Positions 1 through 29,155 are shown, counted from the first letter of the stretch. The stretch is DNA of 64,000 nt from an uncultured Ignavibacteriota bacterium (GCA_903884005.1 CAISDA010000072.1:25284-89283); one strand, 5' to 3'. The notes: generated by a model from the sequence alone, not told the origin. A program made the numbers and translations.

Positions 1-1533
1 GGGACTGAAATCCAATCCCTTGAAATCTGTCGGCGCTCCCGCGGGAAACGTGACACGAGTGCGCGGATATGCTTCACCGTTTTCGCCATCGATCTGCACA
101 AGGTCCCACCCGCGTGCGCTTGTAAGTCCCCAGAACATCCCCGTTCGTGAATCCATTCGCGCACCAACGATCGAACCATAATGCGGCACGCCAACGGCTG
201 TCAGGACGCCGCTCGACGTATCCGCCGCGTAGACACGTGAACTGTCGGCCACTCCCGCTACTGCATAGCAGACACCGCGACGGGCGGCATGAGACCCGAC
301 AGTCCTGAGATACACGTCGAACAACGCAGTCAGAGCCCCTCCCGTGCTCGCATCTGATGAGTTGAATAATACCGCAAAGCTGGCGCCTGTGTGCAACAAA
401 TATCCGGTAATGGAGACGTACCCCATAACGGCGCCGACATGGCCGAACACTTGTTTTCCGTAATAGGCGCCTTGTCTCACCCCCAACCCGTAGCCGCTCC
501 AATCGAATCCTGTTGATTGTGTCGACGCCGCCGGTATGAACGTCAGCATCTGAGCAAGCGAAGACCGAGAGAGTACCGTTCCTTCATAGAGCGCTTTTAC
601 CCACCGCGCCATGTTCTCCCCGGTAGACATCACCGCGCCTGCAGTCCAGAGCGTACTGAAGTGCGCAGTGACTGGTGTTGATGCAAAGTCAATACCGCTA
701 TCCCACGGATGCACCACCGGATCGGCATGTTGTTCTTCAACTTCCAGGAACGTATGGTCCAGAGCGAGCGGCGTGAGGATACGTTCTCTGATCTGCGATG
801 AGACCGACTTGCCGGTGACTTTGTTGATGACCATGCCCAGGAGCACGTAGTCGGTATTGCAATACGTGTATGCTCCCCCCGGAAGCCTGTGCGGCGGGCC
901 GACGAATGTGCGAATAAGTTCTTCGGGAGTCCACAGCCGCGTCGGATTCGCCGCGACAGCATTACCTTGTGCGTTAGAATCGTTCAGATAATCATACAGC
1001 CCGGAGGTCATGTTCAAGAGCTGACGGATCGTGACCGACGCGGTGATATTTGGATACGAAGGCAGATACTTGCTCAGTGAATCGTCGAGCGAGAGCATGC
1101 CTGCGTCTACGAGGCTAAGGATCGTCGTGCTGATGAACGCCTTGGTATTGCTCCCGATACCGAAAAGCATCGCCGGCTGAACGTTCACCGACGGAGACTT
1201 GGACGAAATGCCCGAGACTCCCTGCCAGACGCCCTGCCCCGGAACCAGCACTGCTGCAGATATACCCGGAACACCCTGTGTTGTCCGAACACTGTCCAGG
1301 GCGCGCTGAAGACCAATTGCCAGGGCGGGATCGAACGCCAGGCGTCCGTTATTGTCGGGCAGGATGACGAACTGCCCCGCCGGATACACCTGACTCGCGG
1401 CGTCGAACCGCGCCTCGACAGACGAGGAAGAATCGACATGCCGCCCTTTTACACGCGCCTCTTCCTGCGCATCGGCGTGGGCCGATGCGCAGAGAAAGAC
1501 TGCAACGATCCAGCTGAAATGTTTTACACTCAC
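1..1533 (-). CDS. Serine hydrolase, beta-lactamase family (class C/PBP-like) with extra C-terminal domain. Partial: the 3' end runs past the window start.
   Basis: The frame was not in the ORF track because it hits the window edge. Manual translation is open from the GTG at 1533..1531 down to nt 1. N-terminal signal peptide VSVKHFSWIVAVFLCASAHA. Motifs SNTK (SxxK, in GIGSNTKAF) and Y-C-N-T-D-Y (YxN) are typical of the beta-lactamase/transpeptidase fold. Spot-checked at four positions with no stop codons. Confidence 0.7.
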   Translation of the reverse strand, partial: MSVKHFSWIVAVFLCASAHADAQEEARVKGRHVDSSSSVEARFDAASQVYPAGQFVILPDNNGRLAFDPALAIGLQRALDSVRTTQGVPGISAAVLVPGQGVWQGVSGISSKSPSVNVQPAMLFGIGSNTKAFISTTILSLVDAGMLSLDDSLSKYLPSYPNITASVTIRQLLNMTSGLYDYLNDSNAQGNAVAANPTRLWTPEELIRTFVGPPHRLPGGAYTYCNTDYVLLGMVINKVTGKSVSSQIRERILTPLALDHTFLEVEEQHADPVVHPWDSGIDFASTPVTAHFSTLWTAGAVMSTGENMARWVKALYEGTVLSRSSLAQMLTFIPAASTQSTGFDWSGYGLGVRQGAYYGKQVFGHVGAVMGYVSITGYLLHTGASFAVLFNSSDASTGGALTALFDVYLRTVGSHAARRGVCYAVAGVADSSRVYAADTSSGVLTAVGVPHYGSIVGARMDSRTGMFWGLTSARGWDLVQIDGENGEAYPRTRVTFPAGAPTDFKGLDFSP

Positions 1534-1694
1534 GTTCTCTCCGGGACATCGACAAAAAAATTCCTGAACACGTTATGGTGGACGACGGGAGCAGTCATGA
1601 GTACCGGCAAAAAAAAATCGGCACGGCAGTACTTCCCTCGCATAAGGTAGGTATATCTTTTTGCAGATGCGACTTTCTCTTTTTCGGTTAAGGG

Positions 1695-2702
1695 TTACAG
1701 AAGGTTATTCCATGTCTCAAATACTTTGTAGACGTTGTCAGGATTTCCGGCCGGGCCGAATTCGCATTGCGCAATGCAGCCGCCATTTTGCCACAGAGCC
1801 TCCTTCACATGCATCACGGCCTGCTCGATCTCCTCCGGCGTTCCGCTGGGAAGAAGCCGCTGTCTATCGATCTCCCCCCAGAACGTTATGCTGCCTTTAA
1901 ATTGGGCGAGTTCATCCAGTCCGATACAGAAGATCTGACTATTCAGCGCATCGAGTCCCAGTTCGACAAGATGAGGAATGATCGGAAGCGTGTATCCATC
2001 CGAATGCATGAATATTTTTTTCCCATGCGCATGAGCAATATCGATATACTCCTTATACATGGGTTTAAAGAGTTCCGACCAGATGCACGGGTCGATCAAA
2101 AGACTGTTCTGCGCCCCCCAGTCGTCCATGATGGACAGAGCGTCGACATCAGTCCTTGCCCACACTGTCAGCAATCGGCAATAGAAATCATGCATTTTCC
2201 GAATCACTTCAAACATCCCCTCCGGCTGTATGAGCAGATCGACGAACAACTGCTCAGTTCCTCTGATGAATTGAAGTTGTTCAAAGGGTCGGGGACAGGC
2301 GCCTGCCAGGACAAATTTGTCCGTCCCTGCACAAAACTCGTTCACCCGGGCTGCATCTACGCTCAGCAATTCCTCCGGCAGTATTAGTCTCTCAGCGTCA
2401 CGCCACTCCTCATCTTTTATTAAAGGAGCTTTCACCTCGCCGATGAGTCCATCCTGGATATTTTTGAATGTGCATCCCCATTCATCCGTGTATTCCCCGA
2501 TCGTGTACGGGTCTCCCGAACTCGATGCAGGCAGTTTCAGAAAACTCGGAGCATTAATGATGTCGTCCGGGAAGTCCCGTTGAATTTTTCGGAGCATGCT
2601 GCCATGCTGACGTTCGGCCCAGGGCAATGTCCACAACTGCCGCGGCACTCTCTGGGGGTTGTTAAACTCAAGTGTTCGTACAACGAGTTCTCTTGATCGC
2701 AT
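1695..2702 (-). CDS. Uroporphyrinogen decarboxylase (URO-D) family protein (MtaA/CmuA-like methyltransferase fold).
   Basis: 335-aa product MRSRELVVRTLEFNNPQRVPRQLWTLPW...; URO-D-like TIM-barrel family signature. I set the start at the internal ATG at 2702 rather than the track start at 2783. Confidence 0.7.
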   Translation of the reverse strand: MRSRELVVRTLEFNNPQRVPRQLWTLPWAERQHGSMLRKIQRDFPDDIINAPSFLKLPASSSGDPYTIGEYTDEWGCTFKNIQDGLIGEVKAPLIKDEEWRDAERLILPEELLSVDAARVNEFCAGTDKFVLAGACPRPFEQLQFIRGTEQLFVDLLIQPEGMFEVIRKMHDFYCRLLTVWARTDVDALSIMDDWGAQNSLLIDPCIWSELFKPMYKEYIDIAHAHGKKIFMHSDGYTLPIIPHLVELGLDALNSQIFCIGLDELAQFKGSITFWGEIDRQRLLPSGTPEEIEQAVMHVKEALWQNGGCIAQCEFGPAGNPDNVYKVFETWNNLL

Positions 2703-2821
2703 TCGAAGGTTCCATTCATTCAAATTTCGCTTCCCCGTACCGGAGCGGTACGTTAAAAGTAAATATTTGAAAAATAATACCATTTAGTCAAGGGAATAAT
2801 TTGGATATGTATTGCCGATGG

Positions 2822-3157
2822 TCATTGCGATGCTGCCGCGGTATCCATTTGTTTTTTAATGGCATCTTCCATCCGCGTTCTAAACGAATCGAATTCAGTC
2901 ATGGAGAGCGAACCATCGCCGTTCGCGTCGATCTTCGCAACCATATTTTTTACTTGTGCATCCGGTGTCTTGACGGCTTCTTTTGCCGCGCCTCTGCCGA
3001 GGGCGTGCCGAGCGATTGCACTGTGTATGTCGATTTTGAAGAAACGGAATCTACCATGTGTATTCTCCGAGAGGATACGGGCAATGTCGTCAATGACTAC
3101 ACATACACCATCGGCATGAATGTTGAAAGCTGGAATCCATAGAACGGCAATTTTCAA
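2822..3157 (-). CDS. Small EF-hand calcium-binding domain protein (hypothetical).
   Basis: Canonical EF-hand loop DANGDGSLSMTE near the C-terminus. The N-terminal part is not convincing and has no clear signal peptide, so the start is uncertain. Confidence 0.3.
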   Translation of the reverse strand: MKIAVLWIPAFNIHADGVCVVIDDIARILSENTHGRFRFFKIDIHSAIARHALGRGAAKEAVKTPDAQVKNMVAKIDANGDGSLSMTEFDSFRTRMEDAIKKQMDTAAASQ

Positions 3158-3238
3158 TTTTTTTGCGGTATAAAAGGGAAGTATTATTTTATCCGGACAT
3201 GCCGGAAGCCGAGGTTGTTGATGCGATACATCGGATAG

Positions 3239-3976
3239 TTACAGCTTATTGATGAGCGAGGCTTGACATGCGGCACCAAATCCGTTGTCTATATTGACGA
3301 TGGAAATTCCGTTGGCGCAGCTATTGAGCATGGACAATAAGGCGGACAGTCCCATGAAATTGGCGCCGTATCCGACGCTGGTTGGCACACCGATGACGGG
3401 TTTGTCGACCAGTCCGCCGATGACGCTCCCTAAGGCGCCTTCCATACCGGCTACAACAATGATCACGCGCGCCCCTCTGATCATTTCCAGCTTGTGGAAT
3501 AACCGGTGAATGCCGGCAACGCCCACATCGTACATCGTTTGTACTTCGTTTCCGAGAAAGCGTGCGGTTTCGGCTGCCTCTTCGGCGACCGGAATATCGG
3601 AAGTGCCGGCAGCGACAACGGCGATGTACCCTTTGGGATTTTGCACTTTTTGATGCCTGTAACTGACGATACGCGCCAATTCGTTATACTCGGCCAGGGG
3701 AATGACCTCTTTGACGGCCGCGCTCATTTCGGGAGTAACGCGGCTTGCCAGCACATCAATGCCGTTCTTATACATCCGCTCGGCAATTTGTCTGACCTGA
3801 TCGGTGGTTTTTCCGGCGGCATAGATCATTTCGGGCAGCCCGGTACGATGGAGGCGATCGGTATCGATCGTGGCAAAGCCCATTTCATCGATCCCGTATG
3901 TTGACACCAGCGTTAATGCTTCAGGCAAATTTAATTCGCCGTGTTTGTATTTTTCTAAAATGTCTGTTATTGTCAT
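3239..3976 (-). CDS. larB: LarB, nickel-pincer nucleotide cofactor biosynthesis carboxylase/hydrolase (PurE/AIR-carboxylase-like).
   Basis: 245 aa. PurE-like Gly-rich core (IAVVAAGTSDIPVAEEA...VAGMEGALGSVIGGLVDKPVIGVPTSVGYG). Its start ATG sits 1 nt after the larC stop (TAATATG). Confidence 0.85.
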   Translation of the reverse strand: MTITDILEKYKHGELNLPEALTLVSTYGIDEMGFATIDTDRLHRTGLPEMIYAAGKTTDQVRQIAERMYKNGIDVLASRVTPEMSAAVKEVIPLAEYNELARIVSYRHQKVQNPKGYIAVVAAGTSDIPVAEEAAETARFLGNEVQTMYDVGVAGIHRLFHKLEMIRGARVIIVVAGMEGALGSVIGGLVDKPVIGVPTSVGYGANFMGLSALLSMLNSCANGISIVNIDNGFGAACQASLINKL

Positions 3977-3977
3977 A

Positions 3978-5150
3978 TTAAAGATTCTTGATCACTTCAC
4001 GTTCAACTTCTTCGATGCTGATATTATACTGCTTAGCGATGGCTTTGCACACGCTGTATTCCGGTTTTGAACGAACAATTTTTCCCTCAAACATGCTTTG
4101 CTTCACTGTGATCGGCCCGAATTTTGTCTGTACCAATTTTTCGGTTCGCAACAGGGCACATTTATTAACCGTGTATTCCCGTACTCCGATCGTGGTGCTG
4201 TGGGCAAAGATGATTCCCTTGATCGCGTGCACTTTTTCCACCGAGCACAAGACGCTCAGCTGATTGGCGGGACGCAATTTTTTCATGATGATGGGAGTGA
4301 GCCAGGCGTCCGCAGCGCCTGCTTCGAACAGCTGCTCCATGATGAATTCGTACCGCTCGGGGTTCATGTCGTCGATGTTGCATTCCACCACTGTAGCGGT
4401 CTCTTCGTTCAGATCGGAGGTTGTTGTTTCAGTATCCGACAGGTAGACACGGAGCACATTGGGAACGTCTGAAATATCCCGATGCCCGATACCGTAGCCA
4501 ATTTTTGTGATCGGGAAGTTGATCTCCGACGTGAAGGCATCAACGGTTGCCACCAGTATTGCGGCTCCGGTTGGTGTGGTCGCCTCGTGCTGCACTAGTC
4601 CGGTCTTGACCGGAATATTCGCAACGATCAGGGCGGTTGCGGGAGCCGGGACCGGCATGACGCCGTGGGCGCATTTCACCGTTCCTCCCCCCAGTTGTAT
4701 CGGAGAGGAAAGCACTCTCTCCACATGCAGATATTCCAGGCAAATGGCGGCGCCCACAATATCGGCAATGGAATCGAGCGCGCCGACCTCATGAAAATGG
4801 ACCCGTTCAATTGCGATCTGGTGCACCGTTGCTTCTGCAACAGCGATGATACCGAAGATCTTCAGTGACGTGGTTTTCACTTTTTCCGACAGTGTGCTGT
4901 TGTTGATGAGCTCTTCAACATGGCGGAGGTGACGGTGCTTTTCATTATCAGGATCTTCCACAACGACAGTCGCTTTGGTTCCGGAAATGCCGCGACGGAG
5001 GTCCTTGGTTATTTCGAGATGAAATCCTTTGATATTCAGTTTTTGTACTTCGCTTTCCAGGAAGCCGGCGTCGACACCCAGGTCCAGCAAAGCGCCCAGG
5101 TTCATGTCGCCGCTGATACCGGCAAAGCAGTCGTAATATAATATTCTCAT
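3978..5150 (-). CDS. larC: LarC, nickel insertion protein (DUF111 family) for NPN cofactor maturation.
   Basis: N-terminus MRILYYDCFAGISGDMNLGALLDLGV is the DUF111/LarC hallmark. I set the start at the internal ATG at 5150, 8 nt after the larE stop. Confidence 0.85.
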   Translation of the reverse strand: MRILYYDCFAGISGDMNLGALLDLGVDAGFLESEVQKLNIKGFHLEITKDLRRGISGTKATVVVEDPDNEKHRHLRHVEELINNSTLSEKVKTTSLKIFGIIAVAEATVHQIAIERVHFHEVGALDSIADIVGAAICLEYLHVERVLSSPIQLGGGTVKCAHGVMPVPAPATALIVANIPVKTGLVQHEATTPTGAAILVATVDAFTSEINFPITKIGYGIGHRDISDVPNVLRVYLSDTETTTSDLNEETATVVECNIDDMNPERYEFIMEQLFEAGAADAWLTPIIMKKLRPANQLSVLCSVEKVHAIKGIIFAHSTTIGVREYTVNKCALLRTEKLVQTKFGPITVKQSMFEGKIVRSKPEYSVCKAIAKQYNISIEEVEREVIKNL

Positions 5151-5158
5151 GTATCTCG

Positions 5159-5986
5159 TTACCTGTTGGCTAAAACACGGTTCATTTTTCCTGAGACCAA
5201 CCCTTCGTGGTCGATCACACAATGTTCGAATCCGAGCGCTGTAATTTTTTTAATGACCTCATGCTGAACGAGAGTCAGTTGTTCCAGCTCTTCCTTGCGC
5301 ACTTCGACCCGGCAATAACTGCCGTAATGTCTCACGCGGACGTCTTCAAAGCCATACCTGTTGAGTATCTCTTCGGCAGCCTCGATCTGTCTGAGTTTTT
5401 CAGCGGTGACGTCGTTGTTGTATGGAATCCGTGAGCTCAGGCAGGGGCTTGCAGGCTTATTCCAGTTGGGAAGTTCAAAATATCGGGCAAGCTGGCGTAT
5501 TTCTTCCTTTGTGACGCTGCAATCGACCAGGGGCGACTGCACCTGAAATATTTTTGCGGCATCGAGGCCGGGCCTGTAGTCGCCCAGATCATCGGCATTG
5601 GTGCCGCTGAGGACGTCGAAGCCTGGATATTTTTTGCTGATATCGGTCAGGTCGTGGTACAGGTGTTCTTTACAAAAGAAACACCGGTTCACCGGATTCT
5701 GGTTGTACCGCTCGTCGTCCAGCTCTCTGGTAACGATGACTTCCAGCTGTATATCGGACTGTTCGCAGAACGTTGTTGCAAGCTCAAAGTCCCTGTGTTT
5801 CAGGCTCTCCGAATTGGAGATGACGCCGATCGCTTTTTCCTTGCCCTGAAATTTTCGCGCCAGATACAGCACCAGCGTCGAATCGATTCCGCCCGAGAAC
5901 GCGACGATCGATCCATGCCGATGCGCATACCACTGTTCCAGCGCGTCGAGTTTTTCGGTAAGTTGTGCGGATAGTTGTTCCATCAT
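5159..5986 (-). CDS. larE: LarE, ATP-dependent sacrificial sulfur transferase (PP-loop ATP pyrophosphatase family).
   Basis: PP-loop SGGIDS, plus CFFCK and further conserved Cys typical of LarE. ATG ATG at 5986/5983; the track began at an upstream TTG at 5995. Confidence 0.85.
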   Translation of the reverse strand: MMEQLSAQLTEKLDALEQWYAHRHGSIVAFSGGIDSTLVLYLARKFQGKEKAIGVISNSESLKHRDFELATTFCEQSDIQLEVIVTRELDDERYNQNPVNRCFFCKEHLYHDLTDISKKYPGFDVLSGTNADDLGDYRPGLDAAKIFQVQSPLVDCSVTKEEIRQLARYFELPNWNKPASPCLSSRIPYNNDVTAEKLRQIEAAEEILNRYGFEDVRVRHYGSYCRVEVRKEELEQLTLVQHEVIKKITALGFEHCVIDHEGLVSGKMNRVLANR

Positions 5987-6118
5987 CAGTCTCAATCAGT
6001 TTCGGATATTTTATAATATCGCGATTTTTTTTTATAAATACATTTGCGCACACCGTATTTCCGCACAACCATTCGCTTCACATTTGTACATAGTACCTGC
6101 CGTCCATTGATCACTCAA

Positions 6119-6922
6119 CTACTTCGCCTCAGCCTTTGCTGCAGCCCACAGAATGGCGCCGATGAGATGATTTCTGAACATTTCATTATCGTATAATTCC
6201 GGCATATGCCCAAGCGCGGTGTGAAAGCTTCGTCCGCGCCCGATATGCTGACACCAGATCAACGGATGGTCTCCCATGACGATATTGACGTTCTTAAACC
6301 ATGGGTTCTCATCAATGTTATACGATTTCTCGTCGACTGAAGCCAACACGTTCACATTGCTGTTCATCCTGGGATTTCGGTCGAAGCTGTAAAATTCATC
6401 TTTCCATTTCAGTGTGTCGGCGCCAAAGCATCGTGTTGCGGGATGATCCCTCTTCTCTATGATCAGCCGTGCTTCATGCACCGGAGGATGACCGATAAAA
6501 TACGCTCCCACCAGTTTTTCATACCATGGCCATTTGAATTCAGTATCAGTGGCGGTATGAACGCCGACAAAGCCGCCGCCGCCTTCAACATAGTGCTGAA
6601 GCGCACGTTTCTCATCCTCATTGAGCAGGTCGTTACCGGTGGTCAACAAAAACACAACCGCATTATATTTACTCAATTCCTTATCGGTGAAAAAAGTAGA
6701 ATCTTCGGTAAACGTGACCTGCCATTTTTTCCCGTGTGCGATCTCATAGAGAGCCTTAATCGCGTTCGGTTTGGAGCCATGATAAAATCCGAGCGTCTTT
6801 GAGAATACCAGCACATTCATTCCCTGCCCCGGCTGCTGAATGTTTTCGGGTGTACGATTTTGCGAAAAAGAAATGCTCGCCAGGACGGCGATACAAAAAC
6901 AGACCGGAAGTATATGGATCAT
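6119..6922 (-). CDS. ThuA-like (trehalose utilisation) class-I glutamine-amidotransferase-like domain protein with signal peptide.
   Basis: MIHILPVCFCIAVLASISFSQN signal peptide. ThuA-family motifs (VLVFSKT..YHGS, GGGFVGVHTATDT, FIGHPP). Confidence 0.7.
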   Translation of the reverse strand: MIHILPVCFCIAVLASISFSQNRTPENIQQPGQGMNVLVFSKTLGFYHGSKPNAIKALYEIAHGKKWQVTFTEDSTFFTDKELSKYNAVVFLLTTGNDLLNEDEKRALQHYVEGGGGFVGVHTATDTEFKWPWYEKLVGAYFIGHPPVHEARLIIEKRDHPATRCFGADTLKWKDEFYSFDRNPRMNSNVNVLASVDEKSYNIDENPWFKNVNIVMGDHPLIWCQHIGRGRSFHTALGHMPELYDNEMFRNHLIGAILWAAAKAEAK

Positions 6923-7028
6923 AAGTGCAGCCTCTGGAAGAAGTGTGTGTGTGTCTATGAGCAGGGTCATGGTTCTCATGTACTCACGATGATGGCAGTG
7001 TGGAAGCAATGCGCCCAGTAACTATATT

Positions 7029-8075
7029 TTATTGTGTTGTATTTTTATTCACACTTTTTTCAATTGTGGTCATAGTAGGAGCGCTATTATTGATCAGCCA
7101 ATATTTTATAAACTCGCCTTCCTGTGTAGTGTTATTCCACAAACCTTTGCTGCAGCTATTCGGCTTCAAGGCCGACGTGCTTTCATCCTTATCTCCATAG
7201 CTGAAATTGCACCAACTGATTGAAACGGTATCATTCATCGTTGCATGGTGTTTCATCGTTCTTAAAAAAAGAGAACTGGCAGCAGTATCATTGATCCCTA
7301 ATCCGGAAGATTCACAGGTTCCCCATTCACTGACAAAAACCGGAATACGGTGAATTTGACGGGTAAACATTGGATAGAGCGATTTATGCGAAGCAGCATA
7401 AAAATGGAATGTAAACATCACGTTGCTCGTGTCGTGCAGCTTCTTTGTATCAACACGTTCGAGCTGTTGGTCCCAATCGGGGGTGCCGATGAGAATAATG
7501 GCATGAGGATCATTTTTTCTTATTATCGGCACAATTCTATTGGCATAGCCGGCTATTGTATCCCACGTGATCATTGTTCCATAGGGTTCGTTGAATAGTT
7601 CGTACATGACATTTTTTTTCCCCGCATATTTAGCCGACAGTAAGTCAAAAAAAGTGTCAGCACAGATGTGGTTGGGATCGTTTGGATTTCCATAACGGTC
7701 ATTATGAAAATCAATGATGCAATACACACCCAGCATTTCAGACCACGCGACAATACTGTCGATCAAGATGTTGTTGAACGCGGGATTCTGGTTGTAATTG
7801 TTCGGGTTACTGTAATTGGCAATATACACTGGCGCCCGAAGTACATTTGTATTCCAGTCTTCTTTCAGCACCTTAAAACTCGTGTATGCAATACATTCGG
7901 GCATATGCATCAGCCCGAACATACTCATTCCCCTCAGTTGAAAAGGCGTTCCTTGTTCGTTGCAGAGTTGATGGCCGATCACCTGCAATCGGCCGTTTTC
8001 AGCAACCGGGTTTTGCGACAAGGAAATGCTGGCAAGGGAAAAAAGGTAACAACATAATGAAAGTATTTTCGTCAT
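7029..8075 (-). CDS. Glycoside hydrolase family 5 (cellulase-like endoglycanase), secreted.
   Basis: Signal peptide, GH5 motifs (LRGMSMFG, YELFNEP with catalytic Glu in NEP, FVSEWG with nucleophile Glu). Confidence 0.8.
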   Translation of the reverse strand: MTKILSLCCYLFSLASISLSQNPVAENGRLQVIGHQLCNEQGTPFQLRGMSMFGLMHMPECIAYTSFKVLKEDWNTNVLRAPVYIANYSNPNNYNQNPAFNNILIDSIVAWSEMLGVYCIIDFHNDRYGNPNDPNHICADTFFDLLSAKYAGKKNVMYELFNEPYGTMITWDTIAGYANRIVPIIRKNDPHAIILIGTPDWDQQLERVDTKKLHDTSNVMFTFHFYAASHKSLYPMFTRQIHRIPVFVSEWGTCESSGLGINDTAASSLFLRTMKHHATMNDTVSISWCNFSYGDKDESTSALKPNSCSKGLWNNTTQEGEFIKYWLINNSAPTMTTIEKSVNKNTTQ

Positions 8076-8124
8076 ACGTACCGCTTTCAAATTTTGATAA
8101 CGAGTCAGTTCATGCTGCCGGACC

Positions 8125-8988
8125 TTATTTTATAATGATATAATCGGCTTCTTTAAAACATGCTGCCAATCCCTTGGTCATCCCATTGAAATCATATGAA
8201 TAGACAAAACCATTTTCAACATAGGTCGCCTTTTCACGGCCGTCCCCGCCATTGTGATCGGCGTAATGAACATTCGGAAACGCCGCGCGGCATTTGTCGT
8301 AAATATTATCGGTAATAAACCGGCTGGGGTCGGCAAGCGTAATGTTTTCCTGCGGGACTCCGGCTTCATTTACCAAACTTGTTAATACCGACAGGGTCAA
8401 CTGCGGATTGGCATTGATCTCGTTGTTGCTTTTATGGGCATCGGTATTGTTTTGGTTGATCTTAATGGCTATTTTTTCGCCCGATGCATATCCGGCCTCA
8501 ATGTTCCGGCTTGTTTTATTATAGTAACGGAACAGCTCGTCCCACGATGCAATTTTTGTATTATGGCTCCAGGCAACCCGGCCGGGATGAATGCCTCTGG
8601 CGATGCCAAGCGGCGCGTTCGGGTTATACCAGATCTCCAATTTTTTGCTGCTTGTTTGTGCATCCGATTCCACGGAATAGAGACCGGCGGCGCCAATGCC
8701 AAGCACGACAAACAATGCCGCAGCGACGTACCTGGCCTCAAATAGTTTATTTTTTGTTTTTTTAAACGCAAAGGAGGCGCCGGTTACGGCTAACACCCAC
8801 AGGACAAAACCCGACATCATCGGATAGGACGCCTGCATGCATGGGTAGGCTGCGCGTGAAGGCTTTGGTATGACACGGATGAGAAACCACAGTGTAGAGA
8901 TGATACCCAGGAATAGAAAGCTCAATGTTGCCCAGTGCTTTTTTGCACCTTGAGCGTATGCTAAAAAACTCTTCCCGGTGGTCTTCAT
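8125..8988 (-). CDS. Membrane-anchored DUF362-like domain protein; C-terminus may be truncated.
   Basis: Three N-terminal TM helices, then a DUF362-like core (GEKIAIKINQNNT...TLSVLTSLVNEAGV...NITLADPS). Ends abruptly after ADYIIIK. Confidence 0.4.
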   Translation of the reverse strand: MKTTGKSFLAYAQGAKKHWATLSFLFLGIISTLWFLIRVIPKPSRAAYPCMQASYPMMSGFVLWVLAVTGASFAFKKTKNKLFEARYVAAALFVVLGIGAAGLYSVESDAQTSSKKLEIWYNPNAPLGIARGIHPGRVAWSHNTKIASWDELFRYYNKTSRNIEAGYASGEKIAIKINQNNTDAHKSNNEINANPQLTLSVLTSLVNEAGVPQENITLADPSRFITDNIYDKCRAAFPNVHYADHNGGDGREKATYVENGFVYSYDFNGMTKGLAACFKEADYIIIK

Positions 8989-9081
8989 AATAGTGGCTTT
9001 TGCTATTGTTGTGTGGAATGCGTGTCAAGAGTGAAAATAGGATGTTTTTTCACCCAACGGTTATTTCCCCATTTCAGCAAT

Positions 9082-9672
9082 TCATTTTTTATCCAGGCCG
9101 CTGAGCAACTTGCTGAGAAGCGCAAGCTGTTCCTGCTGCATCGTCAGAAGCCCGGCCCACTGCTTCTCTTTGAGCTCATCTATTTTTTCGTGAAGCGTCA
9201 TGATCTCCAGTTCCGCCTTCAGGTTGACTTCGTAATCATGTTCGGCATTCACCCGGTCTTTGTAGTTCTGACGGTTTTGAGACATCATAATGATGGGCGC
9301 CTGAATGGCGGCAAGCATCGATAAAAAAAGATTCAGCAGAATGTACGGGTACGGATCGAATGAATCCCGATAGATGATAAGGACGAATGAATTCAGGATG
9401 ATCCAAATGAATAAGATGGCAGCGAAGATCGAAATGAACGTCCAGGATCCTCCGAATGCAGCAACCCTGTCTGCCAGTCTTTGCCCAACCGTCATCGGTT
9501 CAAAATGATCCTCAGCGACATTGCTCGACACATGCGTTCTCTCTGCAAGGTGCTGAGCAACGTTTTGTTCCCGCTTGCCGAGCTGGTCATAGTTCTTGCG
9601 GAAATGTTTTTCCGCTATGTCGTGCACCTTCTGATTCATTGCACCCTCCCTCTTATAGTGACGTTCACTCAT
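9082..9672 (-). CDS. DUF1003 domain membrane protein.
   Basis: RLADRVAAFGGSWTFISIF..LFIWIILN, two TM helices plus C-terminal coiled coil. Overlaps the upstream MOSC gene by 8 nt. Confidence 0.65.
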   Translation of the reverse strand: MSERHYKREGAMNQKVHDIAEKHFRKNYDQLGKREQNVAQHLAERTHVSSNVAEDHFEPMTVGQRLADRVAAFGGSWTFISIFAAILFIWIILNSFVLIIYRDSFDPYPYILLNLFLSMLAAIQAPIIMMSQNRQNYKDRVNAEHDYEVNLKAELEIMTLHEKIDELKEKQWAGLLTMQQEQLALLSKLLSGLDKK

Positions 9673-10213
9673 CCCGTTCGCGCTTCTTCACGTCATCGAC
9701 AATTGTATACCCAGGCGTGCCTTCTCGTTCCATCGATATCGCGTCTCCCGCGTGTATTCTACCTTCTTCGAGCACCGTACAATAGAATCCCGATTTGCGG
9801 CTTTTCATGAAACGGCGTATGATATCATTGGAACCGAATTTGGCGGCAAGTTTGAAGCACGGCATCCGGGCTTCGGTGATTTGAAGCAGCGCAGTGCCGA
9901 TCCTGTACACAGATCCGATGAGTATGTCCGTTTCGAGCAATCCTTCTGTCGTAATGTTCTCGCCAAACATTCCCCACTCCATTTTTACGTCAGGGTATTG
10001 GCTGCGCCAGAATTCATAATGTTCAGACGGATAGCCGTACACCGCCTTGTATTCGCCGCCATGGACGCGCACATCCGAGACAGTGTCTTCCGCGACGAAG
10101 AACTTGCGGATGTCTATCGCTTCGACGGGCTCTTTGTAGATTCCCGTTTTTATCATCTTCTCCTGATACAGGATTTCCCGTATCCGGCCGATATTTGTGG
10201 AAATAATTTTCAT
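9665..10213 (-). CDS. MOSC domain protein (YiiM-like).
   Basis: VRVHGGEYKAVYGYPSEHYEFW...GENITTEGL...ARMPCFKL is the MOSC beta-barrel with conserved Cys. I set the start at the internal ATG at 10213. Confidence 0.7.
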   Translation of the reverse strand: MKIISTNIGRIREILYQEKMIKTGIYKEPVEAIDIRKFFVAEDTVSDVRVHGGEYKAVYGYPSEHYEFWRSQYPDVKMEWGMFGENITTEGLLETDILIGSVYRIGTALLQITEARMPCFKLAAKFGSNDIIRRFMKSRKSGFYCTVLEEGRIHAGDAISMEREGTPGYTIVDDVKKRERDE

Positions 10214-10397
10214 GTGCGTTTCCGGAATTCTATTGAAGAAGATGGCGGCGCTGACATCAGGGCATTCTCTCTTCGCGCAAAAAGCAACTGAGGATGACCG
10301 TATAATATAGCAGACTGAGCGTACATAGTCCAATCCGATCACTGTGTCCGCCGTCATCACGCCTTTCGAAAAAAAAGACTGATGCATTACGCTTGTT

Positions 10398-11933
10398 TTG
10401 TTCGGCATTCGTTCGTATTTTCATGTGACAAAAATATTCACTCAACGAGGCGAACGCGTGGCTCTGGAACAGTATTTCTCCCCTTTCCGCAACAATATCG
10501 TCGGCATTGCTCAAACGTTCACGACGCCGTATGGCGAGCAGACCATTGTCTACGCGGATTGGACCGCCAGCGGCCGATTGTACGGACCGATCGAGCGCCG
10601 CCTGCTGGAGACGTTCGGCCCCTTCGTCGGGAACACACATTCGGATTCATCGATCACAGGCCAGCTGATGACGAGCGCGTACCACCATGCGCATACGATC
10701 ATCAAGCGGCATGTGAACGCCGGTTCGGACGACGCGCTGCTGTTCGTCGGCACCGGCATGACGGCGGGCATCAACAAGCTGCAGCGCATACTGGGAGTGA
10801 AGGCGCCCGAGCAGTTCCGCAGTTCCATTCATCTCAGCGAAGAGGATACTCCGGTGGTGTTCGTCACGCACATGGAACATCATTCCAATCAAACGACGTG
10901 GTACGAGACGCTCGCCGATGTGCATGTGCTGGCGGCAACGATTGACGGACATGTCGATACGAACGATCTCTCGGCCGCCCTTGAGCGCTACAGGAACCGC
11001 CGCATAAAGATCGGTTCGTTCAGCGCATGCTCGAACGTGACGGGAGTACAGGCACCGCTCCACGCGCTGGCAACGATCATGCATGAACACGGCGGCATTG
11101 CCATTGTCGATTTTGCCGCGTCGGCTCCGTATGTCTCAATAGACATGCACCCGGCTGAGGATGCCGAACGTCTGGATGCGATCATTTTTTCCCCTCACAA
11201 ATTCATCGGCGGTCCCGCAACGCCCGGCGTGCTTATTCTTCACAAGGATCTCTATACATTGAAGACGCCGGACCAGCCCGGAGGCGGAACAGTGCTGTGG
11301 ACGAATCCATGGGGAGAGCATCGGTACATCCCTGACATCGAAATGCGCGAAGACGGGGGGACGCCGGGATTTTTGCAGGCGATCAAAGCATCGCTGGCAG
11401 TGATGCTGAAGGAAGAAATGCAGGTGGAGAAGATCGCCGAGAGGGAGAAGGAACTGTGCTCGATGATGTTCGAACGCATGCGCACCGTGCCGGGCCTGCA
11501 CATTCTCGCAGACGGCATAGAGGAACGGCTGCCGGTATTTTCGTTTTACATCGAGCACCTTCACTTCAATCTGATCGTGCGTCTGCTCAACGACCGGTAC
11601 GGCATACAGGCGCGAGGCGGCTGTTCGTGCGCCGGAACGTACGGACATTATCTGCTGCATGTGGACAGGGAACATTCGCACCGTATCACCAACCAGATCG
11701 ATCACGGGGACCTGTCGGCCAAGCCGGGATGGGTGAGACTGTCGCTGCACCCGACCACGACTGGGAAGGAAGTCGACCTCATCGCAGACGCTCTCGCCGC
11801 GATCGCGCGTCACGGGCAGGAATGGCAAGTGGATTACGACTATTCGCCGCACAACAACGAATTCTATCATCGCACGGGACTCTCCTACGCAGCCGACCTG
11901 ACAAAATCGTGGTTCGCGGCGGACCTGCGATAA
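10398..11933 (+). CDS. Aminotransferase class V-fold PLP-dependent enzyme (cysteine desulfurase/selenocysteine lyase-like).
   Basis: 511 aa. SPHKFIGGPATPGVL with the PLP Lys in HK; fold-type I features. Confidence 0.7.
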   Translation: MFGIRSYFHVTKIFTQRGERVALEQYFSPFRNNIVGIAQTFTTPYGEQTIVYADWTASGRLYGPIERRLLETFGPFVGNTHSDSSITGQLMTSAYHHAHTIIKRHVNAGSDDALLFVGTGMTAGINKLQRILGVKAPEQFRSSIHLSEEDTPVVFVTHMEHHSNQTTWYETLADVHVLAATIDGHVDTNDLSAALERYRNRRIKIGSFSACSNVTGVQAPLHALATIMHEHGGIAIVDFAASAPYVSIDMHPAEDAERLDAIIFSPHKFIGGPATPGVLILHKDLYTLKTPDQPGGGTVLWTNPWGEHRYIPDIEMREDGGTPGFLQAIKASLAVMLKEEMQVEKIAEREKELCSMMFERMRTVPGLHILADGIEERLPVFSFYIEHLHFNLIVRLLNDRYGIQARGGCSCAGTYGHYLLHVDREHSHRITNQIDHGDLSAKPGWVRLSLHPTTTGKEVDLIADALAAIARHGQEWQVDYDYSPHNNEFYHRTGLSYAADLTKSWFAADLR

Positions 11934-18268: not shown

Positions 18269-18328
18269 CCCCCGGCACAAGGTGCCGGGGGTTTATTAAA
18301 AAGCCCTCTTTCGAGGGCTTTTTTTTAT
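18269..18328. terminator. Tandem, bidirectional rho-independent terminators between the convergent polA (+) and FG-GAP gene (-).
   Basis: Hairpin 1 CCCCCGGCAC-AA-GGTGCCGGGGG (18269–18291), then TTTATT. Hairpin 2 AGCCCTC-TTTCG-GAGGGCT (18302–18319), followed by T8 on the + strand and by TTTTTAATAAA on the minus strand. The minus-gene stop TAA (18327..18325) lies in the T-run. Confidence 0.65.
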
Positions 18329-21300
18329 TTCACAAGCATCATTTTACGGACCTGCGTGAAACGAACGTTTGGATCGGTGAGACCGACTGCTTCGATGCGG
18401 TAGAAATATACACCGCTCGCGGCATGTGCGTTCCACACGGCCTCATGCCAGCCGCCGGATTGTTCCGCACTCACAAGATCTTCAACGAGCTGACCGAGCG
18501 TATTATAAATTTTAATTGATACGCGTCCGGCGGACGGCAATCCGTAGCGAATCGTGGTCGACGGATTGAACGGATTGGGATAATTTTGGGAGAGTGCAAA
18601 CTCCGTCGGCGTTAAAGGGACTCCATTCTTCTGCAGATAGGAATTTGAGCCAATGACGAGCCGGTACCGCACTTCCTCCGAACTCTGAGGAACAGGTATT
18701 GCCTGAAGCTGCCTCAGATCGTATGATGCGGACGACAGCACATTATACAGATAGACTTCGTCGTTCGGCATCGACTGCATTCCCTCGGCATGCAGATATG
18801 CCTCAGCCGCCGCTTTGTTGTGGAGGAGAAGATCGAATATCTGACCATCCCCCACTTCCTTTCTGTGGTCGATGAACAGACGCGTTGCAGGCATATACGG
18901 CGACTCGTTATCGATGACGATACTTGCCGATGCGAAGGTCGTCGGGGGCGCAAAATAATCTTTCACATCATAATCCGTGCAGGATGTTGAATCGAACCCG
19001 GCATACACGGAAGCGACTTCCCTTCCCATTGATGACAGCGACAACCGGATTGCACGGTCGCTGACGTACGGAACGGCATCCAGTTCACGGTCGGTTTTGT
19101 AAAAGGATCCCGCGGGATCGTATGGAAGCAACAGAGACGGCGCGTTGCCAATATTGAGGAAATAATACGCGGTAAAAGGGATCATGGTGGACGCTTGCAC
19201 CCATGCCCCGCTTTTCCAATCGTAAATGACCGCATTAGCCGATAATGCATTGAGTTTGACCACCTCGCTCCACGTAACAGACTTTTCGTAGGGACTGGCA
19301 ATAATATTCCAGCCTGGCTGCACATTCACAGAATACAGACCGGTAGACGTCGTGACATTCGCTGCATTGCCGGAAACGATGAATCCCTTTCTGCTGAGCG
19401 CCCAAAATCCCTTGCCGGCTCCGAAGTCGAATGCGGACGATCCATCATATTCAATGAAATTTGCGGAGACCCCATTATCGCGATACATTCTCCAATCGGT
19501 CTTATACTCGCCCGGCAGCACCGATGCCGCCCCATGCGGTGTGGCTCCGGGAATGCTGACCAGTTTGTAACTCATCGGATTGTCCGGAGTGGAAAATGTG
19601 ATGGTTCTCGTGACGTCGATTGTTTGAGGAATGACCACGATACGCACTTCAATGGGAATGTTCACCGGTGCACTCACGGCATTATGTGTAATGGCAATGG
19701 CCGCGTTATACGTTCCTGCAGTGAGAGTCTGTGAACTATTTTGCTGAAGAGTGATGAACGACGATGTGCCTCCCGCCACGGACAATACTGTGCCCGATGT
19801 CAGTTGCAGCAATGGCGTACCGCTGTATGAAACTGTCCCGGTCAAGGTCTGTTGGCCGCTGTTTGAAATAGTGATGGAGACGGAAGACAATGTGCCCGTC
19901 GTTCCGTTTTTCATGATGAGAATTGAAGCAGGTGCAACAGCGATCGTCGCAACACTGCCTGTTGCTTTGCCGGTGCCTGATAATGCCACGAATGACGGGC
20001 TGCCGGTTGCATTGTGTACAATTGTTAGCGTGTCCTTATATTGTACCGCAAGGGCCGGTGTGAATGTAATGATGATACTGTCGCTGGCGTGAGCAGGAAC
20101 GCCCAACGAAATTTTATTTAATGTAAACACGGAGTTTGTTTGAAGGGATGCGGTGACGGTGAGAACAGCATCGCCGGTATTCGTGACGACCAGTGTTTTT
20201 TTGGACAGTGCGCCGAGAGCAACCGTATCAAATGCCAATGACTTTGCAGAGAGAGCGATCGTCGGTGCTGCAGTGTTGAACGTTTTTGCGCTGTCTTCAT
20301 TCGACGGGGACGACTCACCTGCGCTATTGACTGCTGTAACCCGATACCAATAAATCGTATTCTGATTCAATCCTATGTTAGCGTAACTCGTCTGCGACGC
20401 GCTCGCGGAATCGATCTTTACATATCCTGTACCGGAAGATGCAGAACGGTAGATCCGGTACGATGCAGGCGAGCCCGTTGCGCTTGATGTCCACGTAAGA
20501 TTGACCTGAGATTGCGAAACAGCGGCGGCCAACAGTGTCGTTGGCGCGGCCGGCAGAAATACAGCCGGAGTGGCGATCGTATTCCGAAGCACCGATACGG
20601 CATTGGCGCCATAATTTGCAACAGCCACGTCCGGTATGCCATCTCCGTCAACATCACCGATGGCGGCCGCATACGGAGCTTTCCCTGTAACGATATCCAT
20701 CTTCGCAGCGAATGAACTGGCAATGATGTGACCGGGAATGATGGAGCCGATATTGCTCCGATTCATGAGAATCGAAATTGTATTGCCGCCATTGTTTGCA
20801 ACGACGATATCCGGTCTATCGTCGCCATCCAAGTCACCAAGGGCAACGCAATAAGGAGTAGTCCCCGTGGCGAAATCAACTTTTGCAGCAAATGACCCCG
20901 CGGTCATGGAACCGGAAGTCCCGGTGTTTGAAAAAACAGAAACGGAATTGCTCCCAAAATTTGATACGACCACATCGGCCTTGCCGTCGCCGTCCACATC
21001 ACCGATCGCAACACTATAGGGATTGACTCCTGCAGTCAATTTCACAGCGGCGGCGAAGGACCCTGCAGTGATGGAGCCGGAGGTGCCGACATTTCTATAC
21101 ACAGCAACAGCGTTGCTGCCGCCCCACAGGGTTACGGCTATATCCGGTTTGCCGTCGCCATCGATATCACCGACGGCAATCCCTTGAACATTGCCGCCCG
21201 CGGCAATGTCCACCTTCGGAGCAAACGAGCCGATACCAAGTGAACCAGGGCTGCTTATATTCCTGAACACAGAAACGGAACTGCTACCATAGTTACCGAC

Positions 21301-23067
21301 GATCAGATCCGGTTTGCCGTCACCATCGATGTCGCCGACCGCAATGCTATACGGATACTGTCCGGTCGGTAGATCGAATTTTGCAGCGAAGGAACCCGTG
21401 GTAATGGAACCGGTTGTGCTGATATTTCTGATCACCGATACCGTATTGTCGAGGCCATTAGCGACTGCTACATCCAATTTGCCGTCCCCGTCGAAGTCAC
21501 ACAGGACGACGCCGCATGGATTCGTTCCCGTGAGAACATCGACCCTGGCGGCGAATGACCCCGCCAGCATGGAACCGGAAGTGCTCGTGTTTCTGAAAAT
21601 GGAAACAGCATTGCTGTTATTGCTGGTGACGGCTATATCCGGTTTCCCATCCCCGTCAATGTCGCCAATGATGATACTCTGCGGAAAAATTCCGGTTGTA
21701 AAATCAACTTTTGAAGCGATGGCCGTGGTATCAAAATTCCGTGAATTGGTGAATGTCACGGAAAACGGATTCCTGGAATATGCAGTCAATCCATTCACGG
21801 TGACCGTGATCGGTTGATAGGTTGTTCCGATTGGAACTTTAACTTGTACTTGCGTTGCTGTGGCTGACGTCACCACGGCCTTCACCGCGCCGAACCAGAC
21901 AATGTTATTTGCAGCGGTAGTACTGAAGTTCGTACCGGTGATGGCGACAGCAGTACCGATCGGACCGGAGTCGGGAGCAAATGAGGAAATTGTCGGCGGC
22001 ACAGCGGGCGCTGCAGCAAGAACCGTGAACGGTTCGGGACTCGTGTATTTGCGCACACGGATATTATCTTCAAATCGCGGAAGTGTACTCCCTCCGGATT
22101 GCGACCAGACCCTGTCATACGCGTAGACTTTAAATGCGGAATCCAGCGGCATTGTTTTATTGATGATCGTGGCGGACCCGGACCACGGACCGCCGGGTTC
22201 GGATGCGGGAACAGATTCGGTAAAAATAAACGTGCCGTCAGACTTTCGGATGATCTGCAGGTAATATTCGGGATTATACGTAGTGCTCCAATAATCGTCT
22301 CTGAGGGGGGCATCGGTTTGAACACCGCGCACGAAAATACCGGCGCTGAACGATCCCCAGTCCTGCCACTGGCAATATGCCGAGTTGGTAAAATCCCCGA
22401 CGACTCTGGTCAATCCCGCGGCTCTGTAAATGTATCCGCCTTTTATAAATTGCATCTCAAGAACGATCGGTCCAGTGAATTGCGGCTTTGAGTACAGATT
22501 CGAGTTCGATTGCGGATTCGTTGCGGGCGAAAGATGCTCGAGCCGTTGATTCTGCTCGACAATCTTTCCCTGGGCATCGTAGACGATCTGCCATTTCGCG
22601 GTATCCAGTTTGTTGTCGTTAAAATCGTCTCCGAACAAAAACGTCGTGCCGATATTGCTTTTGGCGGCGGCAGTCGGATCTCCATAGAACATCGAGAGCG
22701 CGGCGACGGCAGATCCCGGAATGACCGGCATTTTCACCCAGATGTGAGTACTATCGTGATTCATGCCGTACTCATTTTGGATACCGGGGTCGATCCAATA
22801 GGACAGGTCATTCGTTGAATCGGTCGTGAACCGGATATCCGAACCATCGGCGTTCATTTTCCCCTGCGTGATAAGGACGGACGTATTGACCTTGACAAGC
22901 ACAGGGTAATCGGTAAGCGTTGCGGGATTGGCGGTATTGTTGACCGAGATGGAGAACACCCATTTCCCAGTCATAACGTTAGAAGAGCCGGCAACGCTTT
23001 GCGCATACGATAAACCGACAAAGAGCGACAGAAGCAGAATCGTTTTGTTTAAGTGTCTCATGGTCAT
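18325..23067 (-). CDS. Giant secreted FG-GAP/VCBS-repeat beta-propeller protein with fibronectin-III/Ig-like domains and a T9SS C-terminal sorting domain.
   Basis: Signal peptide MTMRHLNKTILLLSLFVGLSYAQS. Seven tandem blades, each with a GDIDGDGKPDIAV-type Ca-binding loop. FN3-like segment (SPASYRIYRSASSGTGY). C-terminal NYPNPFNPSTTIRYGL...GVYFYRIEAVG is the T9SS CTD (type A). Start M20 is 4 nt after the upstream stop. Confidence 0.85.
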   Translation of the reverse strand: MTMRHLNKTILLLSLFVGLSYAQSVAGSSNVMTGKWVFSISVNNTANPATLTDYPVLVKVNTSVLITQGKMNADGSDIRFTTDSTNDLSYWIDPGIQNEYGMNHDSTHIWVKMPVIPGSAVAALSMFYGDPTAAAKSNIGTTFLFGDDFNDNKLDTAKWQIVYDAQGKIVEQNQRLEHLSPATNPQSNSNLYSKPQFTGPIVLEMQFIKGGYIYRAAGLTRVVGDFTNSAYCQWQDWGSFSAGIFVRGVQTDAPLRDDYWSTTYNPEYYLQIIRKSDGTFIFTESVPASEPGGPWSGSATIINKTMPLDSAFKVYAYDRVWSQSGGSTLPRFEDNIRVRKYTSPEPFTVLAAAPAVPPTISSFAPDSGPIGTAVAITGTNFSTTAANNIVWFGAVKAVVTSATATQVQVKVPIGTTYQPITVTVNGLTAYSRNPFSVTFTNSRNFDTTAIASKVDFTTGIFPQSIIIGDIDGDGKPDIAVTSNNSNAVSIFRNTSTSGSMLAGSFAARVDVLTGTNPCGVVLCDFDGDGKLDVAVANGLDNTVSVIRNISTTGSITTGSFAAKFDLPTGQYPYSIAVGDIDGDGKPDLIVGNYGSSSVSVFRNISSPGSLGIGSFAPKVDIAAGGNVQGIAVGDIDGDGKPDIAVTLWGGSNAVAVYRNVGTSGSITAGSFAAAVKLTAGVNPYSVAIGDVDGDGKADVVVSNFGSNSVSVFSNTGTSGSMTAGSFAAKVDFATGTTPYCVALGDLDGDDRPDIVVANNGGNTISILMNRSNIGSIIPGHIIASSFAAKMDIVTGKAPYAAAIGDVDGDGIPDVAVANYGANAVSVLRNTIATPAVFLPAAPTTLLAAAVSQSQVNLTWTSSATGSPASYRIYRSASSGTGYVKIDSASASQTSYANIGLNQNTIYWYRVTAVNSAGESSPSNEDSAKTFNTAAPTIALSAKSLAFDTVALGALSKKTLVVTNTGDAVLTVTASLQTNSVFTLNKISLGVPAHASDSIIITFTPALAVQYKDTLTIVHNATGSPSFVALSGTGKATGSVATIAVAPASILIMKNGTTGTLSSVSITISNSGQQTLTGTVSYSGTPLLQLTSGTVLSVAGGTSSFITLQQNSSQTLTAGTYNAAIAITHNAVSAPVNIPIEVRIVVIPQTIDVTRTITFSTPDNPMSYKLVSIPGATPHGAASVLPGEYKTDWRMYRDNGVSANFIEYDGSSAFDFGAGKGFWALSRKGFIVSGNAANVTTSTGLYSVNVQPGWNIIASPYEKSVTWSEVVKLNALSANAVIYDWKSGAWVQASTMIPFTAYYFLNIGNAPSLLLPYDPAGSFYKTDRELDAVPYVSDRAIRLSLSSMGREVASVYAGFDSTSCTDYDVKDYFAPPTTFASASIVIDNESPYMPATRLFIDHRKEVGDGQIFDLLLHNKAAAEAYLHAEGMQSMPNDEVYLYNVLSSASYDLRQLQAIPVPQSSEEVRYRLVIGSNSYLQKNGVPLTPTEFALSQNYPNPFNPSTTIRYGLPSAGRVSIKIYNTLGQLVEDLVSAEQSGGWHEAVWNAHAASGVYFYRIEAVGLTDPNVRFTQVRKMMLVK

Positions 23068-23071
23068 CCCA

Positions 23072-25629: not shown

Positions 25630-25641
25630 GGTAGTGTCCCT

Positions 25642-27535: not shown

Positions 27536-27547
27536 AACTCTCCTTTG

Positions 27548-29032: not shown

Positions 29033-29071
29033 AGTGGATATTAGTAACTCAGCGTACACAAAATAGCCCCT

Positions 29072-29155
29072 GTCATTCTGAAGGAGCTCGAGCGACTGAA
29101 GAATCTCGCCGGGTGCTAACACGATGCAAGATTCTTCGCTTGCGCTCAGAATGTC
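29072..29155. repeat. Inverted pair of a short dispersed repeat (long variant GTCATTCTGAAGGAGCTCGAGCGACTGAAGAATCTC plus inverted short variant GACATTCTGAGCGCAAGCGAAGAATC).
   Basis: 29072–29107 (forward) and 29129–29155 (reverse) in the intergenic gap between Hyf-like genes. The same family recurs at 34301–34325 and 34387–34420. Confidence 0.55.

Follow-up and report, generated by a model that had tools for sequence, protein, structure and literature searches.

A 64,000-nt stretch of DNA from an uncultured Ignavibacteriota bacterium (GCA_903884005.1 CAISDA010000072.1:25284-89283), hereafter the window, carries on its minus strand a real, intact and ordinary cassette of the three biosynthetic genes for the nickel-pincer nucleotide cofactor, larE, larC and larB, and within the same 64 kb there is no gene for an enzyme of any family known to use this cofactor. 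The pattern is already documented: about 15% of the genomes in one survey have larBCE but no larA, and most cyanobacteria possess larBCE without an identified user (PMC11796402). The larECB genes probably constitute a functional, self-contained operon, the cofactor from which would be used by an enzyme encoded elsewhere in the genome, most likely a racemase/epimerase of the LarA superfamily or an aldo-keto reductase (AKR) of the NphT type. Taken as a separate question, it is moderately likely that the user is of a known type, LarA-family or NphT-like, with its gene away from the cassette. The elements that define the cassette, with positions counted from the first letter of the window, are as follows:

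5159 to 5983, minus strand: larE (TIGR00268)
3978 to 5150, minus strand: larC, LarC1 and LarC2 fused (TIGR00299, NF052512, PF01969)
3239 to 3976, minus strand: larB (NF033503)
3236 to 6000, no strand: span that aligns at the nucleotide level to other lar loci, taken as the cassette boundaries (blastn)

The first-pass annotation of the window had reported larB, larC and larE in the order E-C-B with gaps of 8 nt and 1 nt (the larE stop codon begins at 5159 and larC at 5150; the larC stop codon begins at 3978 and larB at 3976), and all of this was confirmed, with scores far above the NCBIfam equivalog cut-offs. LarE scored 285.5 bits against TIGR00268 (cut-off 150), and its best PDB match was the Lactiplantibacillus plantarum LarE (5UDQ/6B2O, E 1e-40), the alignment with 5UDQ spanning 247 residues (E 3e-40). 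LarC, which is encoded by a single fused open reading frame (ORF), scored 212.6 bits against the LarC1 model TIGR00299 (cut-off 90), 145.4 bits against the LarC2 model NF052512 (cut-off 50) and 482.7 bits against PF01969, over profile positions 1-374 of 375, while LarB scored 297.7 bits against NF033503 (cut-off 175) and 61.8 bits against PF00731, the PurE-like AIRC fold. The lengths of LarE, LarC and LarB (274, 390 and 245 aa) are the same as in relatives; larE starts either at ATG 5983, giving the 274-aa protein as called on a twin contig, or at ATG 5986.

The PP-loop SGGIDS of LarE is present and aligned to that of the L. plantarum protein. Its cysteines are found in CFFC, where L. plantarum has WYYA, and in PCLSSR, where the column of the sacrificial Cys176 of L. 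plantarum is occupied by Pro and a Cys follows at +1. This three-cysteine pattern fits the [4Fe-4S]-dependent, non-sacrificial type of LarE, and from these motifs the window protein is predicted to be of the [4Fe-4S] (three-cysteine) type. In nickel-pincer cofactor synthesis, LarB is the nicotinic acid adenine dinucleotide (NaAD) carboxylase/hydrolase that yields pyridinium-3,5-biscarboxylic acid mononucleotide (P2CMN), LarE is an ATP-dependent sulfur transferase and LarC is a CTP-dependent nickel insertase (cyclometallase). If the roles established for these families hold here, LarB would carboxylate and hydrolyse NaAD, the [4Fe-4S]-type LarE would insert two sulfurs and the fused LarC would insert nickel to give the nickel-pincer nucleotide cofactor.

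Elsewhere in the window, at 9665-11933 and about 4.4 kb from larE, a gene for a MOSC-domain protein (minus strand) is divergent from one for a 511-aa class-V aminotransferase with a cysteine-desulfurase fold (plus strand). The aminotransferase could in principle feed sulfur to a [4Fe-4S]-type LarE, but the G+C content at third codon positions (GC3) is host-like there, at 0.70.

The best-known relative is the lactate racemase operon of L. plantarum, larA(B)(C1C2)(D)(E) (Desguin et al., 2014/2015), with which the window has LarB, LarC and LarE in common at the equivalog level. The window differs from it in having no larA, no larD aquaglyceroporin gene and no larR/larMNQO nickel transporter genes, in the order E-C-B, in a LarC encoded by one fused ORF rather than by a frameshifted C1/C2 pair, and in the LarE cysteines described above.

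The absence of a LarA-family gene from the window, also reported at first pass, was upheld by three kinds of search. About 48 ORFs from the whole length of the window, each of 150 aa or more, were scanned against Pfam, and neither of the LarA domains (PF09861 and PF21113) was detected. The six-frame translation, searched by phmmer --max and tblastn with filters off, gave nothing at E <= 0.01 for either of two seeds, the L. plantarum LarA, whose sequence is that of PDB 5HUQ, and a LarA from a related locus (L077). The gene that crosses the window start encodes a secreted beta-lactamase-family hydrolase, not LarA. The set had been called orphan for lack of LarA, a criterion that no longer suffices for the label, as NphT aldo-keto reductases and ornithine cyclodeaminases are now known as nickel-pincer users. 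NphT is an NPMN-dependent AKR (PDB 9YEB) with sugars as substrates, found through the mining of larBCE clusters without LarA within 20 ORFs; AKR co-occurrences numbered 427, and 40% of such AKRs carry His without Lys (Semersky et al., Nat Chem 2026, PMC13524815). The NPAD-dependent ornithine cyclodeaminase is a further non-LarA user, according to Desguin (2025, Int J Biol Macromol 330:147799) as cited in PMC13524815. Neither enzyme is encoded in the window: its ORFs contain no PF00248 domain, the best window match to an AKR from the related loci had an E value of 0.61 (phmmer), and PF02423, the ornithine cyclodeaminase family, was absent from the Pfam results for the window ORFs. The window resembles the NphT clusters, the ornithine cyclodeaminase systems and the larBCE-only genomes, such as those of cyanobacteria (PMC11796402), in having no LarA gene near larBCE, a comparison that for the window covers 64 kb, and it differs from the first in having no AKR of any kind and from the second in having no PF02423.

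Separation of lar genes from LarA is also the ordinary condition among the closest relatives of this cassette. In 80 genome loci, each extending 10 kb to either side and annotated with phmmer, LarC was found in all 80, LarB in 79 and LarE in 75; a DsbD_2-like membrane protein was encoded directly after larB in 58, NikR directly before larE in 48 (NF003381, above cut-off), and an AKR in 18. LarA was present within 10 kb in 1 of the 80 loci (L077, from a metagenome-assembled genome [MAG] of Desulfocapsaceae), so that in this clade lar operons as a rule have no LarA close by, a phenomenon also described in general, and 62 of the loci had neither an AKR nor LarA within that distance. The usual order is nikR-larE-larC-larB-membrane protein, often followed by a gene for an AKR of ~390 aa (L008-L087; e.g., L005:8604-14047). 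The membrane protein begins ...GFIHTLLGPDH..., which recalls the HupE/UreJ nickel-permease signature, and its assignment as a nickel permease is putative. Among the 125 genes that immediately flank the operons, classified with Pfam, PF00248 ranks first with 14 members, ahead of 9 ABC ATPases, 5 SDF and 5 Vut_1 proteins. The best PDB match of the relatives' AKRs is NphT 9YEB (E 3e-16 with a single sequence and 4e-20 with a profile; next AKR 1e-10), and because an invariant His stands at the position of the Ni-binding His144 of 9YEB and the Lys200 column is an invariant Ser, these AKRs fall in the 'His without Lys' class (PMC13524815). Neither nikR nor a gene for the membrane protein or for the AKR has left a trace in the window, be it between larB and the downstream gene for a uroporphyrinogen decarboxylase (URO-D)-fold protein or across the rest of its length.

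The limits of the cassette are sharp. When window positions 1-10500 were compared by blastn with 84 lar loci, all alignments to the lar loci of other taxa fell within 3221-6000, and the closest relatives aligned from 3236 or 3239 to 5986 or 6000, that is, from the larB stop to the larE start, at 78-81% nucleotide identity and with their flanks unaligned. Alignment continued beyond the cassette only for the same-population contigs L003 and L004 (99.5% identity), which correspond to window 2624-4900 and 2789-4057, reach 2624 and 2789, respectively, and come from two other metagenomes (JGI 3300081887 and ENA ERZ4224321). At this identity they represent the same population, with the same junction between larB and the small ORF that follows it, in several samples.

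The aligned Prolixibacteraceae/Bacteroidales loci (L007-L087) share gene order and gene lengths with the window, and LarA is almost never adjacent in them. Amino acid identity to the Bacteroidales relatives is 79-91% overall (79-84% for LarE, 82-86% for LarC and 85-91% for LarB). The nearest LarC relatives (82-86%) are in MAGs labelled Bacteroidia, Prolixibacteraceae, Tangfeifania, Prolixibacter and Mariniphaga, the best LarC match among GTDB representatives is at 86%, and the top LarC matches, like the 80 genome loci, belong nearly all to MAGs of Prolixibacteraceae or other Bacteroidales. In contrast to these loci, the window is without nikR, the DsbD_2-like membrane protein and the AKR, its flanks are unrelated, and its host lineage is apparently a different one. 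The window pyruvate kinase matches 'Bacteroidota bacterium' MAGs at 72-95% and then Ignavibacteriales at 56-64%, none of its 120 best matches being labelled Bacteroidia or Prolixibacteraceae, and the host looks to be a different, Ignavibacteria-like lineage of Bacteroidota. GC3 is 0.70-0.77 in the window housekeeping genes, 0.60 in its lar genes and 0.43-0.53 in the lar genes of most relatives. Because homology ends at the cassette edges, the relatives are of Prolixibacteraceae type and the host lineage differs and has a higher GC3, the bare three-gene core was probably acquired horizontally from the Prolixibacteraceae/Bacteroidales lar clade in an old event. It would have been taken up without its frequent companions in the donor clade, namely nikR, the gene for the putative nickel-permease-like membrane protein and that for the NphT-like AKR.

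Base composition also varies along the window as a whole. Blocks of lower GC3 (0.47-0.63) at 1695-10408, 18325-26205, 44327-52247 and 60852-63962 are interspersed with housekeeping blocks (0.68-0.78), a pattern suggestive of accessory genes set in mosaic fashion among core genes. Of the lower-GC3 blocks, the first contains the lar cassette.

Several points weigh against the reading of a functional operon of horizontal origin that serves a user elsewhere. No user has been located, in a search that spans the 64-kb window, and with no nikR, nickel transporter or known user there, a partnerless cassette, whether recently stranded or tied to an unknown scaffold, is possible. The taxonomy of the host is based on one housekeeping protein and GC3, and GC content alone was set aside as proof of horizontal transfer, for which composition is weak evidence given that several other accessory blocks of the window are likewise low in GC3. 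The ratio of nonsynonymous to synonymous substitution rates (dN/dS) of the three lar genes is 0.04-0.11 in comparisons with three relatives (0.06-0.10 for larC and 0.04-0.05 for larB) with dS about 1, which means that the genes have long been under purifying selection, across a branch so long that the ratio is no proof of present-day function.

A rival idea is that of a stranded horizontal cassette that has no user and either makes an unneeded cofactor or is silent and decaying. The one in the window came without nikR, transporter and AKR, and it does lie inside a lower-GC3 accessory block between apparent gene remnants, namely a decayed EF-hand ORF on one side and a 287-aa ORF without a family on the other. 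However, its three genes are intact, of full length and tightly coupled, their dN/dS and dS values are those given above, and the same arrangement recurs at 99.5% identity in two other metagenomes, all of which makes stranding improbable.

A user from an undescribed protein family, encoded elsewhere in a genome that truly has no LarA, NphT-type AKR or ornithine cyclodeaminase, is less hard to accept and still unlikely. The genomes surveyed in PMC11796402, the cyanobacteria in particular, show that larBCE can lack an evident partner, and so do the 62 loci of the donor clade with neither AKR nor LarA within 10 kb, but an absence over such a distance is uninformative about other parts of a genome, both LarA homologues and AKRs are abundant, and the present analysis gave no positive evidence for an undescribed family.

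The first-pass annotation had posed a choice between a user encoded elsewhere and a neighbour of the cassette acting as a novel user. The former fits all findings, including the single LarA in 80 related loci, and the latter went unsupported: the URO-D gene has no lar association, lar homology stops at the larB stop codon, and the EF-hand ORF is probably a remnant. It would be a slim chance at the very best that either of these downstream genes encodes the user, and conserved linkage of the cassette to any of its neighbours is lacking. The nine genes of the minus-strand series that runs from 8988 to position 1 comprise larE, larC, larB and the following neighbours:

8125 to 8988, minus strand: unclassified 287-aa ORF, first gene of the nine-gene series
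between the 287-aa ORF and the ThuA gene, minus strand: cellulase of glycoside hydrolase family 5 (GH5), with a Sec-type signal peptide
6119 to 7009, minus strand: ThuA-family protein, upstream neighbour of larE (PF06283, 226 bits)
2822 to 3157, minus strand: small EF-hand-like ORF (Pfam EF-hand models below cut-off)
1695 to 2702, minus strand: URO-D/MtaA-fold TIM-barrel protein (PF01208)
1 to ~1530, minus strand: secreted beta-lactamase-family hydrolase, running past the window start (PF00144, 188 bits)

Under the favoured reading of a self-contained larECB operon, the EF-hand ORF and URO-D-fold protein downstream and the secreted ThuA and GH5 proteins upstream would all be unrelated neighbours. 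An Rfam scan at gathering scores gave two tRNAs only, with no NiCo or other riboswitch, and scans for sigma-70 promoters and terminators stayed at background level and were uninformative.

The small ORF at 2822-3157 had been described at first pass as an EF-hand protein, a description with weak backing. One intact, canonical EF-hand loop, DANGDGSLSMTE, is present. The Pfam models EF-hand_7, EF-hand_5 and EF-hand_1 (PF13499, PF13202 and PF00036) match at 17.7-21.9 bits, all below their gathering scores, and the preceding first loop, in pairwise alignment with the best match, is decayed, with a 2-residue deletion. In a search of 1.8 billion representative proteins, 546 matched, mostly over residues ~55-110 only and to the repeats of multi-EF-hand proteins; the best non-self match (P0367) had 47% identity (E 1.7e-21, phmmer). 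The frame stays open up to the larB stop, and on the twin contigs from the two other metagenomes an antisense ORF, 2807-3142 on the plus strand, was called in its place. Because the first loop is decayed and only the C-terminal ~55 residues find matches, ORF 2822-3157 is probably the remnant of a small multi-EF-hand gene and outside the cofactor system.

The start of the URO-D-like gene, first placed at 2783, was corrected to 2702, since homologues are 335-340 aa long and align from the Met at 2702. Its assignment to the URO-D-family methyltransferase/decarboxylase fold was sound, with PF01208 and structure prediction in agreement. PF01208 scored 47.7 bits (cut-off 23.9) over the C-terminal half only, and the NCBIfam MtaA/CmuA models NF040654 and TIGR01463 scored 24-26 bits, below their cut-offs of 235-400. 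The AlphaFold2 (AF2) model has a predicted local distance difference test (pLDDT) score of 94, and by Foldseek it resembles the MtaA-like methyltransferase of Methanosarcina mazei (4AY7/4AY8, template modelling [TM] score 0.70) and URO-D (TM score 0.63-0.68), not AKRs. MtaA carries a His-x-Cys zinc motif, in place of which the URO-D family of the window shows MHSDG. This family is large and highly conserved, with 4449 homologues, among which proteins of Clostridia such as Vallitalea, Clostridium sediminicola and [Eubacterium] contortum are 60-66% identical to the window protein, and no literature on it was found.

An association of lar genes with the URO-D-like gene across genomes, also raised at first pass, did not emerge from either direction. 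LarB, LarE and LarA were absent from all 80 metagenome loci (760 kb) that were checked around URO-D homologues of 52-66% identity, and a URO-D gene of the window type was absent from all 80 lar loci. LarC was found in one of the 80 URO-D loci (L140:3415-13127), as a solitary larC with no larB or larE within 14.5 kb; four URO-D paralogues, clustered and under AraC regulation, lie 5.3 kb away. This proximity was judged coincidental because unrelated genes, for a glycosyltransferase (GT2), a superoxide dismutase (SOD) and AraC, separate larC from the paralogues. The two URO-D homologues nearest in sequence (79% and 72%) have as neighbours a GH42-like gene, or else AraC regulators and URO-D paralogues, without lar genes, and the genes typically found beside members of the family are those for ABC transporters, AraC regulators, URO-D paralogues, ROK kinases, enzymes of the dihydrodipicolinate synthase (DHDPS) family, sulfatases and GH95. 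The URO-D-fold protein is probably sugar-related, and nothing ties it to the nickel-pincer cofactor.

It is therefore highly improbable that the TIM-barrel protein encoded downstream of larB represents a novel enzyme dependent on the nickel-pincer cofactor, and no better can be said of the fuller version of this idea, in which the host has no LarA, NphT-type AKR or ornithine cyclodeaminase and the URO-D barrel is a new, non-NAD(P)-derived nickel-pincer scaffold. What speaks for it is largely position and fold: the gene is on the same strand as larB, about 540 nt downstream with no convincing terminator between, at the general position taken in relatives by the gene for the NphT-like TIM-barrel reductase (there usually after the membrane-protein gene), and the protein is cytoplasmic and a TIM barrel like NphT. 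The family moreover has the invariant residues His171, Lys228 and His233, and no PDB sequence homologue was found at E <= 0.01. Yet the adjacency is unique to the window, the nearest homologues and typical neighbours point to sugar-related or AraC-regulated contexts, lar homology stops before the URO-D gene, the fold is that of MtaA/URO-D rather than of the AKRs, and the family is not NAD(P)-binding, unlike those recruited so far.

Least probable of all is that the lar genes work for the secreted carbohydrate enzymes encoded beside them, ThuA and GH5, for example in a keto-sugar pathway. ThuA-type genes do occur within 10 kb of lar in six of the closest relatives (L008-L011, L013 and L016), genes for GFO/IDH/MocA proteins and 3-keto-disaccharide hydrolases recur near the lar genes of relatives, and sugars are the substrates of NphT (PMC13524815). 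However, the co-occurrence with ThuA is limited to closely related, syntenic genomes, and the window ThuA is distant from the ThuA proteins of those relatives (41 bits). ThuA, with the N-terminal sequence MIHILPVCFCIAVLASISFSQ, and GH5 both bear Sec-type signal peptides and are unlikely users because they are secreted, whereas the cofactor is loaded in the cytoplasm. The ThuA gene itself, with a GC3 of 0.54, is outside the cassette, and blastn revealed no nucleotide homology between its region and the flanks of the relatives' lar loci.

The window adds one further example to a well-documented pattern, in which the genes for the nickel-pincer cofactor are frequently found at a distance from the gene for a LarA-family user, or with no such gene at all. 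The mining of such loci has already given two enzyme classes, the NphT-type AKRs (PMC13524815) and, by the citation in that paper, the NPAD-dependent ornithine cyclodeaminases. The window is also a clean example of a bare larECB core that moves as a unit, apparently from Prolixibacteraceae-type Bacteroidales to another lineage of Bacteroidota. The census of the donor clade shows that the operon usually includes nikR and a membrane-protein gene and that, of the enzymes encoded next to it, an NphT-like reductase is the most frequent, and the negative result for the URO-D-like family strikes it off the plausible candidates. If this MAG should truly be without all three known user families, it would be of use in the search for another scaffold.

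Other genes of the window deserve brief mention. The 287-aa ORF at 8125-8988 has three N-terminal transmembrane helices and a soluble part of ~170 aa, and it has no match in Pfam, NCBIfam or PDB. By eye it had seemed like a truncated DUF362 protein, from the same Pfam clan as LarA, an idea that was dropped as unsupported: neither Pfam searches with the full protein and its sub-domains at E values up to 10 nor phmmer against PDB gave support for DUF362, and a single-sequence AF2 model (pLDDT 45) was unusable. In a Bacteroidales MAG, a homologue of this ORF is encoded 2.6 kb upstream of larE (L022:1-447, minus strand); it stands at a contig end and matches at 116 bits over the N-terminal 149 aa only. 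Farther along the window, a minus-strand cluster at 26786-36457 encodes an Mbx/Mrp-like membrane-bound complex, with an Oxidored_q6 subunit with an Fe-S domain, a 49-kDa subunit, NuoH-like and 4L-like subunits and three antiporter-type subunits, and an IS481-type transposase gene (HTH_32, HTH_28 and rve_3) at 57092-58045, also on the minus strand, adjoins genes for surface proteins sorted by the type IX secretion system (T9SS).

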